Below, one piece after another: positions 6,416-60,832 of a stretch of DNA of 61,509 nt; the stretch's first letter is position 1; every line of letters begins with the position of its first letter. The stretch spans positions 1-61,509 of the IMG/VR virus record IMGVR_UViG_3300050011_000416; one strand, 5' to 3'. The notes below the pieces were generated by a model. That model ran no database searches and had not been told where the DNA came from. It saw only the letters and a program-made list of their open reading frames with translations. Position numbers and translations under genes: made by a program. The stretch comes from a virus (Duplodnaviria > Caudoviricetes).

Positions 6416-6958
6416 ATGAAAATCTGTATTAATTGCCAAAAAGAATATCAACCATCCGATAATAGACAAAAATATTGTTCTTGCTCATGTGCAAGCACTG
6501 TGAACAATAAACTGTATCCCAAAAAGATCAAAAAAGAAAATAAGTGTGCTTGTGGAGAGAAAAGATACAAATATGCAAAAATGTGTAGAAAATGTGCCGA
6601 TTTTTCTAAAATTAATAGGCGTGGAAATGTTCCAGTAGAACAAGCTAAGACTAGTAAGGGACCATCCATCCATGCTTTTACCAGGGCTCACGCTAAATCT
6701 ATGATGAGTTTTTACGATATCCCCAAAACATGTGTGGTATGTGCCTATGATCGATATGTTGAAATTTGCCATATCAGGCCCATCTCTGATTTTCCGGGAG
6801 AAACCGTACTTTCTGTCGTTAATTCTCTTAATAATTTAGTACATCTTTGCCCAAATCATCATAAAGAATTTGATCGAAACCTTATTGAATCAGAAAAAAG
6901 AGAAGTAATACTAAAAGGTTCAGAACATTTAAAACTAGAACTTAAAACTAGAACTTAA
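6416..6958 (+). CDS. HNH endonuclease with zinc fingers
   Basis: CxxC...QKYCS..C N-terminus; CVVC...EICHIRP...NLVHLCPNHH HNH core. Confidence 0.8.
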   Translation: MKICINCQKEYQPSDNRQKYCSCSCASTVNNKLYPKKIKKENKCACGEKRYKYAKMCRKCADFSKINRRGNVPVEQAKTSKGPSIHAFTRAHAKSMMSFYDIPKTCVVCAYDRYVEICHIRPISDFPGETVLSVVNSLNNLVHLCPNHHKEFDRNLIESEKREVILKGSEHLKLELKTRT

Positions 6959-6972
6959 AGCAATCTTAGTGT

Positions 6973-7047
6973 AGCAGAGTAGTGGAAGGATTACCATTTT
7001 GGCCTCATAAGCCAAAGCACCGAGTTTGAGTCTCGGCTCTGCATCCA
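6973..7047 (+). tRNA. tRNA with CAT anticodon (Met, fMet-like or Ile2)
   Basis: Acceptor stem (A)GCAGAG/CTCTGC(A), anticodon arm TTGGC-CTCATAA-GCCAA, T-arm CCGAG-TTTGAGT-CTCGG, encoded 3' CCA. Confidence 0.85.
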
Positions 7048-7055
7048 AAAATAAC

Positions 7056-7084
7056 TTGCATTCCCAATCCCAATCATACATACT
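7056..7084 (+). promoter_or_regulatory. Sigma70-like promoter for ncRNA copy 1
   Basis: TTGCAT-17 bp-CATACT, ending ~10 nt before the structured RNA. Confidence 0.55.
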
Positions 7085-7093
7085 TTTATTTAA

Positions 7094-7261
7094 GATGGCC
7101 GCGTGGAAAGCGGTGGATACCGTGCCGACTTCGTGGGCGGCATACTGGACCCACTGGAGACATGCACTCGACCGCCCGTAGGTCGGCAGACTTGAGGAAT
7201 GTTCCTTGGGTCACGGGCTCTAAAGATTTATTGCCGAAGTGGGAGTAGCGTCCCACCCATC
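7094..7261 (+). ncRNA. Unidentified tRNA-shaped structured RNA, copy 1
   Basis: GC-rich intergenic tract with closing stem GATGG/CCATC, GCGTGGAAAGC...GGAGACATGCA, and terminal hairpin GTGGG-AGTAGCGT-CCCAC. These motifs are shared with 8224-8455 and 53636-53838. Confidence 0.7.
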
Positions 7262-7277
7262 ATTAATTAGGAGACAT

Positions 7278-7481
7278 ATGATCTCAATTATAGAAGCTTG
7301 GGGATTTGAACCGGACGATTGGGCATGTTCGCCACACAAAATATACAGTTTTACTTCTGAATCTAATACCGATTCAGATAAGATACTGAAACGCATGTTT
7401 ACTGATGAATTGGTCAAGTTTGTAATCATCAATGATGGAACAAACAAGCAAACTTATCGTAAGGGATGGGTACTTGATTAA
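7278..7481 (+). CDS. Hypothetical protein
   Basis: ATG behind an AGGAG SD. The ORF-track start at 7239 lies within the ncRNA. Confidence 0.55.
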   Translation: MISIIEAWGFEPDDWACSPHKIYSFTSESNTDSDKILKRMFTDELVKFVIINDGTNKQTYRKGWVLD

Positions 7482-7612
7482 ATGAAGTTAGCATCTATAA
7501 TATTCTGTATCGCGCTATATCTCGTTTTCTTAGGTTGGGCCTACCACGAAAATATCCTCTGTACTCCTACAGAACATACATCGGGATCCCCCTGTCAAGG
7601 TTTGGAGTAACC

Positions 7613-8191
7613 ATGAAATATCTACCTGAACCAGATAGTTTTTATGAGAACGAGAGATATAGTAACCAAGTATCCATCATGATTACTCCATACCGTAGTC
7701 TAAACTGGAAAGATTTGGTTACAAAATACGGTATTCAAGTTCCCGATATCATAGACCGCACATGCGGTAAATCTAAATGCGATGAGTGTAATGCTATATA
7801 TGTCGGACATCAATCTAAATGCGAGGCTATGGTGGAATTTCATCGAAAACCCGAAGCGTATTATGACACTAGAGGCTATCATTATATGTATCGTAATTTT
7901 GTGCAAAAGTGTGGCGGCTACCTTAGATGGGAACTGCAATCACAATTTAACCTCCAAACAGAGTTCTTTTCGTTACTAGAAATAATTAGTAGTTTGCCAC
8001 CAGTCATATACGATCCATTTATTAAATTTAGCGAACACTTTCCTCCAGGGGTTCCAGAATTACTTAGAACCAGAATACTCTCTCAAGAGATGCAGAATGT
8101 GAAGGCAGAACTGAATCTAATAAAGATGGGCATGCAACAAATTGCTCAAAAAATGAATTCTGCTGGGGCCTGTCTTAGTTTTGGTTTTTAG
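7613..8191 (+). CDS. Hypothetical protein (Cys-containing)
   Basis: ATG behind GGAG; long open frame. Confidence 0.55.
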   Translation: MKYLPEPDSFYENERYSNQVSIMITPYRSLNWKDLVTKYGIQVPDIIDRTCGKSKCDECNAIYVGHQSKCEAMVEFHRKPEAYYDTRGYHYMYRNFVQKCGGYLRWELQSQFNLQTEFFSLLEIISSLPPVIYDPFIKFSEHFPPGVPELLRTRILSQEMQNVKAELNLIKMGMQQIAQKMNSAGACLSFGF

Positions 8192-8219
8192 TTGACTTTT
8201 TAACAAAATAGGATATAGT
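8192..8219 (+). promoter_or_regulatory. Sigma70-like promoter for ncRNA copy 2
   Basis: TTGACT-16 bp-TATAGT, immediately before the RNA. Confidence 0.55.
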
Positions 8220-8223
8220 TAGG

Positions 8224-8455
8224 TTTCTCATGAGGCGTGGAAGCAAGTAGGCGCTAGAAACCCTGGTACGCTGGGGACAATCAGGTAAGCTGGCAAAGGT
8301 GACGATGCCGACCTATTTTAGAGACACGCAACGACCCAAAAAGATCATTCGTAATAGATGTAGAGTTTACGTACCTTTAGGGGGCACACTGGAACTACCT
8401 GGTCAGGACTGGCCATACTTGAGCCGGAGTAGAAGTAGCGATCTACCATGAGAAA
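8224..8455 (+). ncRNA. Unidentified tRNA-shaped structured RNA, copy 2
   Basis: 9-bp closing stem TTTCTCATG/CATGAGAAA, GGCGTGGAAGC...AGAGACACGCA, and terminal hairpin GTAGA-AGTAGCGA-TCTAC. Confidence 0.7.
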
Positions 8456-8457
8456 AT

Positions 8458-8534
8458 AGGCAGTGGGTGCTGTGAGACGTGCAGACTAAATGACTCCTCG
8501 TACGGGATAAATCGGAATAGTCAGCCCACTGTTT
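8458..8534 (+). ncRNA. Candidate companion stem-loop RNA after copy 2
   Basis: AGGCAGTGGG/CCCACTGTTT outer stem and GACTA/TAGTC inner stem; intergenic. Confidence 0.4.
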
Positions 8535-8553
8535 TAATTTTAGGGAAAAATAT

Positions 8554-8712
8554 ATGAAGTGGTTATACAGAATCATTAGATTGTTCAAATGTCCTCACAA
8601 GTATGTCCAAACTAGCGGTCGCCTAAGAATAATTTTTGGCAATTTCTCAAACCACTACGGGTATATGAAGGCGTGTACTCGCTGTGGTAAAAACAAGGGG
8701 TTTAGGTATTAA
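8554..8712 (+). CDS. Small hypothetical zinc-binding protein (52 aa, not in ORF track)
   Basis: Translates to MKWLYRIIRLFKCPHKY...ACTRCGK with CxH and CxxC; AGGG SD. Confidence 0.5.
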   Translation: MKWLYRIIRLFKCPHKYVQTSGRLRIIFGNFSNHYGYMKACTRCGKNKGFRY

Positions 8713-17600: not shown

Positions 17601-19416
17601 CGTCGTCTTCCTCTAAAAGGTCGTCAATTTCCATCTCAATGAATTGCATCGTAAGTTCAACAGGACGTGGGGCAAAATAAGCAATAAGGGTATTTGGACT
17701 AACTTGTGCCATCAATTGCATATTTTGTAAGAAAAAGGGATCTCTCTTATAACGAAGCATGGGATCTGAGGTAGCCCCAATTGCACCAGTAAAGAATTCC
17801 TTAATCTCTCCAACATTTTGAAGCTTGTCCCATAATAGCTGAATTCGTTCGTTAAAGGGGATGTCGCCGCCAAGATATTTAGGAATGATATCCTTATCCA
17901 CATGAAGCAATACGTCGTTGTAAGTCATCGACGTTGGCATATCTTGCTGTAATCGTGTGGCTTCTTGTTCTTTAGATTCCGCATCCAGTCCAGCAAACTC
18001 AAGGACAACTATCTTAGCCAGAATGGGGTCAATGATTGGAATCAATCTTTGATTAAAGAAATTCTCAAAATGTTGCAAAAGAGGAACAAGCCCAGAATCT
18101 CTGGCAGCTTCCATCTTGAATTCGTTATTGGACTCAGATAGGGTTTGAGAATTCGAACCCTTAGAAAGATGGCCATATCCAGGAAGCTCATCCGGAGACA
18201 TCTGGAAAGTGGCTAGAATGTTCCTGGCGATCTGGTCATAAATGAACTCAAAACTGTCATCAGCTTTATCGTTGGCAAATGACAGCCACTCGATTTGTTC
18301 TTGGGGAGAAATACCCATCAAAGGAGTTCTGAAAGAATTCTGAACACCATTGATAGATGCCTGAAACTCTTGCCTAAACTTTTCTAGAGTAGGGCTATCG
18401 ACATCATCAGACTTAATAACCAAAGCACCACGAGTAGCGCGACCGTTTTGGAAGTAAAGTCTTTTCCACGTATCGATAGAGATATGTGTAGTTAAAGAAG
18501 AAATTACTGTCTCAATAGGAGGAATTGGATAACCATTTTTCTCAACGTCGGTAGATGGGAAAAAATCATGCATTAACAATTCTTTATGCGTAAAGTATTG
18601 TTTTGCAATGCCTTCTACCTGTTGACACCATGCGTATTTATCTTCTCTAAGCTTATCGTAATCAACTTTGATAGTGTCGCCAGTAATACGCTCAAGCTCT
18701 TTAATGGCCAAGATGCGAGTGTTTATGCCAGCTTGTTCTCCATTGCGAACCGTTTTGTAAATGGTTCCGGCGTCAATTGCCCTAAACCTATTAAATGGAA
18801 ACTCCCCATCTTTATCAGGAGCGGTTTCTCTGTCATAAATAACTTCTGTACCCATCCAGCCAAAGGTCAAAGCATTCTGAACCTGAATACCCAGAAATTG
18901 GCTTAGGGTAGTTTTCTGTTGATTTTCAAGACCTTCGGTGTGACCGCAATTTAATAGGATGGTCTCAAGACGCTTAATACGTTCAGTAACTTTTGCAAAC
19001 TGTTCTGTATTGAGGAGTTTGAGGAATTCAGACTTGATCCTAACCTGCATTCCCTTATCAAAACGATCTTTCCTCTTCTTACCGAACTGACTGAGCTGGC
19101 CGCCACGAGTTCTAAGAATTGCGGCAAGCAAATGGTCCTGAACTCGAACCATCTTAAGAATGCTGTCGGGGATCTCATTACGTTTGGACTTAACTACTCC
19201 AGCATAGGCATCGTTGTAGTTTGGGCTCTCCATGAAGGTAAGAGCTGGGGCACGCTCTGTGGCTTTACCAGTGGCGTCATTAAGGGCTTTCTGGAGAGGA
19301 TGCAAGTCCATTTTTGACTTTTGAAGTTCCTCAGTAGGACTCATATTAGAAGCATCGGGAAGAGTTAGGCTCATCCCCTTCTTAATAGCAGATTTTGGTT
19401 TACTGTCATTGATCAT
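17590..19416 (-). CDS. Portal protein
   Basis: 608 aa. NGYPIPPIE, YFQNGRATRGALVI, ARNILATFQMSPDEL and GLVPLL motifs resemble HK97/SPO1-type portals; lies after TerL. Confidence 0.85.
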   Translation of the reverse strand: MINDSKPKSAIKKGMSLTLPDASNMSPTEELQKSKMDLHPLQKALNDATGKATERAPALTFMESPNYNDAYAGVVKSKRNEIPDSILKMVRVQDHLLAAILRTRGGQLSQFGKKRKDRFDKGMQVRIKSEFLKLLNTEQFAKVTERIKRLETILLNCGHTEGLENQQKTTLSQFLGIQVQNALTFGWMGTEVIYDRETAPDKDGEFPFNRFRAIDAGTIYKTVRNGEQAGINTRILAIKELERITGDTIKVDYDKLREDKYAWCQQVEGIAKQYFTHKELLMHDFFPSTDVEKNGYPIPPIETVISSLTTHISIDTWKRLYFQNGRATRGALVIKSDDVDSPTLEKFRQEFQASINGVQNSFRTPLMGISPQEQIEWLSFANDKADDSFEFIYDQIARNILATFQMSPDELPGYGHLSKGSNSQTLSESNNEFKMEAARDSGLVPLLQHFENFFNQRLIPIIDPILAKIVVLEFAGLDAESKEQEATRLQQDMPTSMTYNDVLLHVDKDIIPKYLGGDIPFNERIQLLWDKLQNVGEIKEFFTGAIGATSDPMLRYKRDPFFLQNMQLMAQVSPNTLIAYFAPRPVELTMQFIEMEIDDLLEEDDDAS

Positions 19417-53635: not shown

Positions 53636-53838
53636 TTGGCGGCGGCGTGGAAAGCTGTGGGAGTAGCTCAGAGGAGAAAGCGGGGTCGAGAGATCTGCTA
53701 TGTGGGTTCGAGTCCCACCACCACTGGAGACACGCATCGGAAGGTGGAATGAGTAGGTACTGCAACGTCGGGCGTAAGTCAGGCGTTAATGCGTCATCTT
53801 TATAGTCCTACTAGTAGGAGTAGCGTCCTACCCGCCAA
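53636..53838 (+). ncRNA. Unidentified tRNA-shaped structured RNA, copy 3 (contains nested tRNA-like domain 53657-53724)
   Basis: Closing stem TTGGCGG/CCGCCAA, GGCGTGGAAAGC...GGAGACACGCA, and terminal hairpin GTAGG-AGTAGCGT-CCTAC. Confidence 0.72.
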
Positions 53839-53842
53839 TAAA

Positions 53843-53916
53843 TTTAACGGGTGCTCATCCTAGGTATTTGGGCCACAGTCAAAAGAATCGGATGAAGTGT
53901 CTGATTGCCCGTTAAA
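53843..53916 (+). ncRNA. Candidate companion stem-loop RNA after copy 3
   Basis: TTTAACGGGT/GCCCGTTAAA outer stem and TCATCC/GGATGA inner stem. Confidence 0.4.
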
Positions 53917-53932
53917 ATTAAGAAAGGTTCCC

Positions 53933-60205: not shown

Positions 60206-60832
60206 ATGAATTATCCAGAGTTAGATTTAAAACTTGGAATAGATACTAAAGAGAAACAGTATCTGGAAGTAGAATGTAAGTATAACGCAGATGACATAGA
60301 TCGCGTTACATTCAAGGATCTAGCTAATAGCCTTAATCCCAAAAGCTTCATATATGTGGAATCAACCGATATCTATTATTCTTTAAGCGAAAACGAATTT
60401 TTAAGACAAAGACTTCCAGCAGAAAACAAACAAGGATCTGAGGAACATAGATCCGAGCTTACCTTCAAAAAGAAACATATTGAGCAAAATAATTGGACAA
60501 GGACGGAAGTTAATCTCAGAACTGACCTTAACGATCCCGCATTGGTGGGAGCTTTCTGCGAAGGTCTTGGATATAAGAAGAACTTTTCTATAAGAAAGTG
60601 CTGTGATATCTATTTCTTTGATGACGCCGATATTGTCTATTATACAGTTAAAGACGAAGATGGGAAGTATGCCCATTTTATTGAAATTGAGGCGTCAGAA
60701 GACATTGGAATGACCCCAGATCAGTCCTGGGAAGTTGTCTTGAAATACGAAAAGCTTTTAGCGCCTTTAGGAATAACTCCTCAAAAACGTAAGAGATTGT
60801 CATTGTGGGAAATGTATAGGCGGGGATTTTAG
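60206..60832 (+). CDS. CYTH-domain protein (class IV adenylyl cyclase / triphosphate tunnel enzyme)
   Basis: EVECKY (ExExK), DIYY, FLRQR, LTFK, R.E and FIEIE motifs. Confidence 0.8.
   Translation: MNYPELDLKLGIDTKEKQYLEVECKYNADDIDRVTFKDLANSLNPKSFIYVESTDIYYSLSENEFLRQRLPAENKQGSEEHRSELTFKKKHIEQNNWTRTEVNLRTDLNDPALVGAFCEGLGYKKNFSIRKCCDIYFFDDADIVYYTVKDEDGKYAHFIEIEASEDIGMTPDQSWEVVLKYEKLLAPLGITPQKRKRLSLWEMYRRGF

Follow-up and report, generated by a model that had tools for sequence, protein, structure and literature searches.

A widespread family of structured RNAs with tRNA-like branching in uncultured phages

Three intergenic stretches of the IMG/VR virus record IMGVR_UViG_3300050011_000416, a DNA of 61,509 bases that was analysed over its whole length and is called the window here, are genes for one structured RNA family of approximately 120-290 nt that is present in many unrelated uncultured phages. 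The hosts of the carrier phages are of the Proteobacteria type. We hold with high confidence that the family and its fold are real; this structured phage RNA family is widespread and, as far as our searches reach, undescribed. The branching pattern of the RNA is that of tRNA, with a continuous stack of 7 + 5 bp, a 2-nt linker and a short second linker of 0-2 nt. To our knowledge, there are very few structured phage RNA families beyond tRNAs, introns and a handful of ornate RNAs, and most of them are without an assigned function. The family described here is compact (the smallest members are ~120 nt), widespread and without a protein partner, and its size and modular build make the RNA a good subject for structure determination.

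The window has a G+C content of 40% and an estimated completeness of 37%. We consider it to be a fragment of a large tailed phage because of the proteins that it encodes, which include a UvsX-like recombinase, a DnaB-like helicase, SbcCD-like proteins, a deoxynucleoside monophosphate (dNMP) kinase, ClpP and an HNH endonuclease.

Anatomy of the RNA and evidence for its fold

A first-pass annotation had pointed to the stretches 7094-7261, 8224-8455 and 53636-53838 (copies 1 to 3) as sharing an ordered architecture, and this was confirmed, all three being intergenic, on the + strand and with the motifs in the order claimed. From 5' to 3', the elements are the first strand of the closing helix P1, a 2-nt linker, the word GCGTGGAA(A)GC, the helix P2a closing a variable domain (D1), the word (G/A)GAGACA(C/T)GCA, a second variable domain (D2), a 5-bp hairpin (P4) with the loop AGTAGCG(T/A), and finally the second strand of P1 (P1'), which abuts the hairpin directly. 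The window contains the words GAGACAYGCA and AGTAGCG[TA] exactly three times each, always inside the copies, and 0 times on the minus strand. A gapped three-part pattern matches copies 1 and 3, with a chance expectation of 0.00 in 100 shuffles; copy 2 falls outside this pattern solely through its D1 gap of 78, compared to an allowed 76. Open reading frames (ORFs) within the three regions are short and unconserved only. The pairings proposed for the copies were also found as described: P1 pairs in each copy with a different sequence (GATGG/CCATC, TTTCTCATG/CATGAGAAA and TTGGCGG/CCGCCAA), the terminal hairpin pairs as GTGGG/CCCAC, GTAGA/TCTAC and GTAGG/CCTAC around an 8-nt loop (AGTAGCGN) and is followed at once by P1', and P2a pairs as GGTGG/CCACT and AAGTAGG/CCTATTT. 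In copy 1 the minimum free energy (MFE) fold contains P1, P2, P2a and P4. The coordinates of these elements are given in Table 1.

The fold predicts what should be found in the 3' half of any further member, and this prediction was examined in 86 distinct matches that had been chosen solely on two cores of the 5' half (GGCGTGGAAAGC ... TGGAGACACGC) and that had at least 150 nt of downstream sequence. A match was counted if a hairpin of 5 bp in which 4 or more of the pairs form, with the 8-nt loop NNNNGCGN, was present no more than 280 nt downstream, and if the next 5 bases were complementary to the 5 bases preceding its own CG linker. The predicted hairpin and the matching P1 strand were present in 72 of the 86 matches, compared to a mean of 0.55 and a maximum of 2 when the downstream sequence was shuffled (20 rounds). 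In a control that keeps the hairpin but mismatches the P1 partner, with downstream sequences swapped between matches, the number passing was 7. Members with a 7- or 9-nt loop, a GCA/GCU loop or a bulge in P1 account for most of the failures in the metagenome set, and two failures in that set were without a clear hairpin.

Further evidence comes from covariation. A covariance model of the 5' half (R1, 91 positions) was built, the 3' half being checked by a script descriptor, and the search with this model recovered all known copies plus more diverged ones that had been missed by the patterns. The R1 matches with a recognisable hairpin and P1, 37 of them by script plus L011, which has a bulge, were aligned using MAFFT (alignment A5; 38 full-length members, 22 pairs, 836 cells). 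The covariation seen in the three copies extends to this larger set: 95.5% of the 836 cells form standard pairs versus 75.4% after shuffling, changes on both sides are found at 17 of the 22 pairs (179 cells), and none of the five covariation measures was reached in any shuffle (0/500). Slid registers pair in 28-45%. The covarying pairs are all 7 of P1, all 5 of P4, and all 5 formed by P2a and its flanking C-G pair, and a previous count, made on 11 sequences, agreed with this. The proposed pairing of GCGTG with CAYGC (P2) is compatible with the alignment, but it is nearly invariant, with 0 double changes, 3 invariant pairs and 2 that vary on one side only, and covariation neither supports nor refutes it; most rows of A5 derive from pattern scans that fixed the core letters, and variation in P2 and in the core is visible solely in the copies found by the model. 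Approximately 19 cells of A5 are G-U pairs that would be A-C on the opposite strand, and these fit an RNA made from the + strand.

The same data bear on whether the sequences act as DNA, for example as a promoter/terminator cassette, a recombination site or a repeat resembling miniature inverted-repeat transposable elements. Such an element would be in keeping with scattered, multiple and sometimes tandem copies, with the promoter-like and U-run flanks that are common among them, and with ordinary thermodynamic z-scores. However, compensatory changes keep four helices while the sequence drifts, the G-U pairs would not survive on the other strand, the conservation is concentrated in single-stranded loops, the copies lie nearly always on the strand of the flanking genes, and neither terminal inverted repeats nor target duplications are present beyond P1. 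We therefore give very little credit to an element acting at the DNA level.

The anatomy of the RNA was counted in 52 distinct members that pass the strict script descriptor, and all counts out of 52 below refer to these. Their length is 121-274 nt with a median of 194 nt; in the metagenomes, lengths of up to 291 nt occur. The commonest length of P1 is 7-8 bp, and its sequence differs in every copy; the linker after it is CG in 48/52. P2 is a helix of 5 bp (GCGUG/CACGC) and is separated from P2a by an internal loop made up of purines only (GAAAG facing GAGA), with G-C and C-G pairs on either side. P4 is 5 bp long, its first pair is G-C in 50/52 and its closing pair G-C in 44/52, and it abuts P1' without a gap in 51/52. 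The 8-nt loop of P4 reads RRU(A/C)GCGN and is most commonly AGUAGCGN (29 members) or AGUCGCGN (15 members). About 45 core nucleotides are almost unchanged across the carriers, the conservation being concentrated in loops and junctions. Two readings of these motifs were dropped: the GAAAG/GAGA loop does not fit a K-turn, having on its bulged strand an AG where GA is needed (judged by eye against the consensus), and a hammerhead-like CUGGAGA...GAAA has its elements in reversed order.

As the first-pass annotation had it, two domains vary in both length and sequence, the D1 gap between exact core words being 13-98 nt and D2 spanning 28-151 nt. D1 forms a plain hairpin (for example in stretches L086 and L078) or two or three hairpins, while D2 forms one to four hairpins and begins 0-2 nt after P2 in most constrained folds. 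D2 appears in recurring types rather than as free sequence, because members from different contigs have long D2 stretches in common: L006, L018 (1246-1487) and L036 (6003-6198) have in common AGAGAGAAGACAATACTCGG...GAGGGTAATC, and a second type, with GGGAAGYRCGGGAACAAGCGYRCAT in common, is found in L037, L044 and L089. D1 seems to accept inserts derived from tRNA, because T-arm-like GGGUUCGAnUCCC hairpins are found in D1 of copy 3, L093 and L094. At the position of the copy 3 T arm, L093 and L094 carry a GGGTTCGAnTCCC hairpin.

Table 1. Coordinates of the RNA copies and associated features in the window.
Feature	Coordinates	Strand	Evidence or detail
tRNA-Met (CAT) gene, context only	6974..7043	+	ARAGORN; Rfam tRNA 44.2 bits
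Copy 1, whole element, 168 nt	7094..7261	+	R1 covariance model 53.8 bits
Copy 1, P1	7094-7098 with 7257-7261	+	Linker CC 7099-7100
Copy 1, 5' core	7101..7116	+	Column conservation in A5; P2 5' strand GCGTG 7101-7105; purine loop GAAAG 7106-7110; C7111; P2a 5' strand GGTGG 7112-7116
Copy 1, 3' core	7151..7166	+	P2a 3' strand CCACT 7151-7155; G7156 opposite C7111; loop GAGA 7157-7160; P2 3' strand CATGC 7161-7165 (one G-U pair); A7166
Copy 1, P4 hairpin GTGGG / AGTAGCGT / CCCAC	7239..7256	+	Abuts P1' directly
Sigma-70-like promoter TTGACT-16-TATAGT	8192..8219	+	10/12 matches; -10 box ends 4 nt before copy 2 P1
Copy 2, whole element, 232 nt	8224..8455	+	R1 40.4 bits; MFE fold has all four helices
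Copy 2, P1	8224-8232 with 8447-8455	+	
Copy 2, P2	8235-8239 with 8325-8329	+	
Copy 2, P2a	8245-8251 with 8312-8318	+	
Copy 2, P4	8429-8446	+	
Copy 3, whole element, 203 nt	53636..53838	+	R1 72.1 bits
Copy 3, P1	53636-53642 with 53832-53838	+	
Copy 3, P2	53645-53649 with 53731-53735	+	
Copy 3, P2a	53657-53660 with 53721-53724	+	
Copy 3, P4	53814-53831	+	
Copy 3 D1, degenerate nested tRNA-like cloverleaf	53661..53720	+	Constrained fold; ARAGORN calls no tRNA
Copy 3 D1, canonical-looking T arm GTGGGTTCGAGTCCCAC	53702-53718	+	Rfam transfer-messenger RNA (tmRNA) T-arm fragment, 10.2 bits, E 0.05

Distribution and genomic setting

The idea of a three-copy family confined to this DNA was not borne out, since scans with sequence patterns in IMG/VR, metagenomes and metagenome-assembled genomes (MAGs) revealed a large family across many phages. 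The strict three-motif pattern was found in 8 further IMG/VR contigs. Scans that require only the two 5'-half cores gave 27 IMG/VR stretches with a gap of 43-73 (7 of them already known), 15 with a gap of 12-42 and 5 with a gap of 74-104, and 57 stretches in metagenomes of the Joint Genome Institute with a gap of 20-50. The species-representative genome set gave 3 stretches in the two-core scan. Its matches include a contig with two copies in a Cellvibrionaceae MAG, which has 5 matches on 4 contigs, and a copy in a Brevundimonas MAG that is identical to a 41-kb viral contig; a match in an Acetobacteraceae MAG was discarded as a false positive, being without the hairpin and without P1. We consider the RNA to be phage cargo and not a cellular RNA, because among 151 genomes of the family of the Brevundimonas MAG only 1 matches, namely the MAG itself.

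Using R1, the copy numbers in nine virus records were 3 (the window), 3, 2, and 1 in each of six, and second copies were found also in L031, L035 and L036. Tandem copies 12-90 nt apart are present in carrier G001, L035 and L036, the pair in G001 being ~16 nt apart. The carrier genomes are 41-157 kb long with a G+C content of 32-45%; the 5' half of a prophage copy has a G+C content of 73%.

Copies 1 and 2 had been credited with promoters of their own. This stands for copy 2, whose promoter passes the scan (Table 1), but the TTGCAT-17-CATACT proposed for copy 1 fails it. Copy 3 is preceded by a 9/12 promoter-like site ending 34 nt upstream. Across the family, a TANNNT hexamer ends 2-7 nt before P1 in 30/52 members versus 7-14/52 in equal windows further upstream, with a peak at a distance of 5 nt, and full sigma-70-like sites at that distance were found in 7 of 36 members versus 0.35 expected. 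At the other end, a U-run of at least 4 lies within 12 nt after P1' in 21/52; in an earlier set, such runs were found after P1' in 17/37 and before P1 in 6/37.

All three copies in the window and nearly all others lie on the strand of their flanking genes. The larger downstream genes encode a NadR-like protein with a Nudix domain, PNKP, ParB, GroEL, a class IV aminotransferase and DnaB, in addition to RecA and many small ORFs, and the upstream genes include those for a PA14 protein, a GMP reductase and an SPFH protein. By blastp, the ORFs around 14 copies have no protein in common except RecA/UvsX, which was found once upstream and once downstream. No protein cluster is present in all six carrier genomes in an all-against-all comparison (E 1e-5), the best being present in 4/6 and having no Pfam match. 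A link to tRNA genes was also sought, and 3 of 32 loci hold any tRNA, one of them within 400 nt. The close tRNA genes are in two phages and both are tRNA-Met, one of them 50 nt upstream of copy 1 in the window and the other ~340 nt upstream of the tandem copies of G001, and two such cases are too few for a rule.

These surroundings raise the possibility, which we consider the main rival of the reading favoured below and the less probable of the two, that the element is a cis-acting leader, i.e. the whole 5' untranslated region of an operon acting on its own transcript. It might do so as a riboswitch, in which P1 and the U-run would terminate transcription or hinder access of the ribosome, as an antiterminator like put, or as a stabiliser of the 5' end. 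The placement of the promoters would make P1 the start of the transcript, the U-run after P1' is found in 21/52, and a Shine-Dalgarno sequence with a start codon lies no more than 25 nt after P1' in 21/52 as well; nearly all copies point the same way as the genes around them, and aptamers commonly combine, as this RNA does, a deeply conserved core with peripheral parts that vary and a P1 of unconstrained sequence. The closeness of start codons, and of upstream genes that in several copies end 5-16 nt before P1, fits a leader equally well, or merely the compactness of phage genomes, in which any insert is expected to lie close to a start codon. However, the downstream genes are without anything in common, from NadR-like/Nudix, PNKP and ParB to GroEL, the aminotransferase, DnaB and RecA. 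A riboswitch would be recognised by consistent genes of one pathway together with an expression platform; the genes found here are unrelated and no separate platform was seen, although the U-run after P1' could serve as one. In addition, the L019 copy (carrier G002) faces a gene on the opposite strand and has no downstream gene on its own strand, so that it is not a leader there, and the first copy of a tandem pair cannot abut a start codon.

The put RNA of phage HK022 is ~70 nt long with two stem-loops and makes RNA polymerase resistant to terminators in cis, and HK022 has two put sites, to which the 1-3 copies in each carrier may be compared. Both are promoter-proximal structured RNAs in few copies per phage, with a U-rich pause or termination signal just downstream, and put needs no phage protein for its action. 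The two are alike in position only, the family having a multi-way junction and occurring also in tandem and without downstream genes. If the RNA were a leader modifying RNA polymerase, the very small put/EAR group would be widened.

tRNA-like topology and the favoured reading

The claim of a tRNA-like scaffold holds for the cloverleaf branching, but the RNA is not a tRNA by any detector and its hairpin loop is not a T-loop. Like canonical tRNA, it has the same order of branches, a terminal helix of ~7 bp that passes without a break into a 5-bp hairpin on the 3' side, a linker of 2 nt after the 5' strand of that helix, a short second linker, and two conserved loops placed where contact is possible. 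It differs in having the 8-nt loop RRU(A/C)GCGN where tRNA has a 7-nt T-loop, in a 'D arm' that consists of an invariant 5-bp helix, a purine internal loop and a variable domain, and in a length of 120-290 nt without an anticodon arm and without CCA. ARAGORN called only the tRNA-Met at 6974-7043 in the window and none of the copies. In E-value mode, Rfam gave no tRNA match on any copy, just the 17-nt T-arm fragment in D1 of copy 3. Neither CCA nor a conserved base was found after P1' in the 52 members.

The reading that we favour, at a probability of roughly 40%, is that of a stable, separately transcribed, trans-acting RNA of tRNA shape that binds a conserved host factor. Such an RNA would usually be its own transcription unit, whose -10 box would place the start on the opening bases of P1; a U-run often comes after P1', and both ends would thus be buried in P1, like those of stable RNAs. 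The purine loop of P2 and the loop of P4 probably dock like the D and T loops of tRNA, which would give a rigid core with D1 and D2 projecting from it. We think this docking likely because the two loops are both 5 bp from the junction, but it is a geometric conjecture, as the elbow contact derives from geometry only. The RNA would then bind a component that is conserved among its hosts and recognises tRNA shape, with RNase P, the ribosome, tRNA enzymes and nucleases of tRNA-directed defence as candidates, and D1 and D2 would serve as peripheral or cargo domains that differ between lineages. The roles suggested in the first-pass annotation, a decoy for tRNA-targeting defences or a guide or sponge RNA, are likewise conjectural.

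A trans-acting RNA is favoured over the alternatives because of the fixed distance between promoter and P1 and the burial of both ends in P1, because tandem pairs have a tRNA-like spacing, and because one copy is without a downstream gene on its strand and no association with particular genes was found. Conservation across unrelated phages usually means contact with a universal host component, or a chemistry of the RNA's own. A partner conserved among hosts is argued for here because the core is near-invariant in unrelated phages, and tRNA-reading machinery is the first candidate because of the tRNA topology.

Several observations weigh against this reading. A -10-like hexamer is absent from the expected place in 22/52 members, and the closeness of start codons and upstream genes described above would suit a cis-acting leader just as well. 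The ends, the stability and the abundance of the RNA are predicted from DNA sequence. It is topology that earns the RNA the name tRNA-shaped; the detectors are blind to it, it has no T-loop and no CCA, and D2 is without a conserved anticodon-like arm. In 37 members, no consistently placed Watson-Crick complement to the P4 loop was found. The folding-energy z-scores against shuffles are ordinary (-1.83, -0.37 and -1.17 for copies 1, 2 and 3), and P2 is absent from the MFE fold of copy 3. Because the thermodynamics of the single sequences is unremarkable, it is the comparison between sequences that supports the structure, and there the 'invariance' of P2 and the core is partly by construction, as their letters were fixed by the search patterns.

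A more specific proposal, that phages of many lineages carry an undescribed class of tRNA-mimicking scaffolds that use their 'elbow' core to engage either a machine of the host or a defence nuclease, in each case one reading tRNA shape, and that bear two swappable cargo domains, seems to us unlikely. If it were true, the scaffold would be an RNA-only device for counter-defence or hijacking, with several versions per phage, and the cargo in copy 3, L093 and L094 would be a T arm derived from tRNA.

Comparison with known RNAs

The comparison with Rfam that had been proposed for this RNA gave no matching family in Rfam 15: at the gathering score there were 0 matches in the window, and with E up to 10 there was noise only. 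Models that matched neither in the window nor in either of the two regions searched with E up to 10 include GOLLD, ROOL, raiA, OLE, pRNA, Y RNA, tmRNA and 6S. The scan of the whole window also missed the tRNA-Met (6973-7044), which scores 44.2 bits when searched alone versus a gathering score of 29, and a blank in this mode is therefore weaker than it looks, because the fast filters evidently dropped this gene. Among GenBank phages, blastn with 6900-8600 gave no match, and the 21 records returned for a 30-nt core query (E up to 10) are all partial or in coding genes and were judged to be noise. In the literature, neither a full-text search for the core words of 10-12 nt nor searches on phage RNAs resembling tRNA turned up a fitting description. 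A catalogue of ~8,500 candidate phage RNAs reports motifs of 29-151 nt (PMC10690425), and a fragment of the family may sit among them. A new class would be gained whichever of these the RNA turns out to be: a mimic of tRNA, a riboswitch or a ribozyme.

Hammerhead, twister and related ribozymes are scattered in phages without gene association, a pattern resembling the multiple scattered copies seen here. The RNA might accordingly belong to a new ribozyme class, for example one whose self-cleavage at an edge of P1 would sever operon transcripts or generate the ends of the RNA. Loops and junctions, and not helices, hold the ~45 strongly conserved nucleotides, and copies lying 5-16 nt behind a gene would need processing for a 5' end flush with P1. 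Nevertheless, we regard a ribozyme as improbable: no Rfam match was found to hammerhead, twister, twister-sister, pistol, hatchet, HDV-like or glmS ribozymes, even with E up to 10, the RNA is larger than the known small self-cleavers, and many copies have their own promoter at P1, so that no 5' cleavage is needed.

Some GOLLD RNAs contain a tRNA-like insert. The family resembles GOLLD and ROOL in being phage-borne, in having no consistent protein partner, in being sometimes beside tRNA genes or containing them and in having no known function, and we asked whether it could form an RNA-only architectural particle of that kind, a homo- or hetero-oligomer mediated by loops with the differing copies as subunits. 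The absence of a protein partner, the tRNA-like insert in one domain, the tRNA genes adjoining the element in two phages, and the conserved loops without an intramolecular Watson-Crick partner would all suit such a particle. GOLLD, ROOL and OLE are reported to form homo-oligomers (PMC12286853). The particle is nonetheless highly improbable, since the family is three to five times smaller (120-290 nt versus ~580-800 nt) and has a single multi-way junction where those RNAs have many domains, it is dissimilar to the Rfam models of GOLLD and ROOL, and intermolecular pairing is unsupported.

The nearest known kind is represented by species 1 and 2 of phage T4 (rnaC and rnaD), which are phage-encoded, tRNA-like, stable RNAs of unknown function. 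They adjoin tRNA genes and a homing endonuclease gene, and in the window an HNH endonuclease, tRNA-Met and copy 1 adjoin each other; in Enterobacter phage IME523, an rnaC homologue lies 10 nt after tRNA-Met. T4 rnaC (L074 4909-5047) holds the 9-mer GAGTAGCGT twice within 139 nt, and the same word is the most conserved loop of the family. In rnaC, however, the 9-mer lies in covarying stems around a CGUCAA loop, whereas in the family it belongs to an 8-nt loop; rnaC also has a canonical T arm, lacks both family cores, and has homologues confined to T4-like enterobacterial phages. Homology with rnaC and rnaD was rejected, as the best R1 score in the T4 tRNA region with filters off was 9 bits and did not lie at either of these two RNAs. 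The TAGCGTCAACT at the second site of rnaC is invariant in 4 homologues. The HNH endonuclease gene of the window (6416-6958, PF13391) is followed after 15 nt by tRNA-Met (6974-7043) and this after 50 nt by copy 1, and phage T4 (L074) has segB, tRNA-Arg, rnaD and rnaC in corresponding order.

The noncoding RNA arrays of UG27 reverse transcriptases in phages consist of sequence-diverse units of ~150 nt with short conserved motifs that are gained and lost, each unit being a primary hairpin with or without a pseudoknot, and they stand beside a reverse transcriptase and two accessory genes (bioRxiv 10.64898/2026.09.22.753630). The family is similar in being phage-encoded, structured and sequence-diverse with only short motifs kept, and different in its scattered copies, its multi-way junction and the lack of a reverse transcriptase. 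Searches for the reverse transcriptase domain PF00078 gave 0 of 5 carrier records, 4 of which are at least 90% complete, and control genomes responded; a UG27 or retron type was rejected on this ground.

The yybP-ykoY Mn2+ riboswitch, in which two internal loops dock within a four-way junction, shares the word GAGUAGCG with the family. Its model (RF00080) gave no match at E up to 10, and in the family the 8-mer is a hairpin loop beside the 3' strand of P1 and not an internal loop after the 5' strand.

Some smaller features of the window are also worth recording. Directly after copy 2 (8456-8548) and copy 3 (53839-53928) lie second long, irregular hairpins, which have in common GGGTGCT, AATCGGA and a G+C-rich closing stem (CAGTGGG/CCCACTG and AACGGG/CCCGTT, respectively). 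After the hairpin at 8456-8548 comes TTTTAATTTT, and this hairpin may act as terminator for copy 2. Neither of the two hairpins matches Rfam, and they have z-scores of -1.09 and -2.30. Position 18432 is the sole further occurrence of GAGTAGCG in the window beyond the three copies. Finally, a CYTH-domain protein (60206-60832) and the dNMP kinase (96-833) are among the few proteins that the window has in common with carriers G001 and G007.

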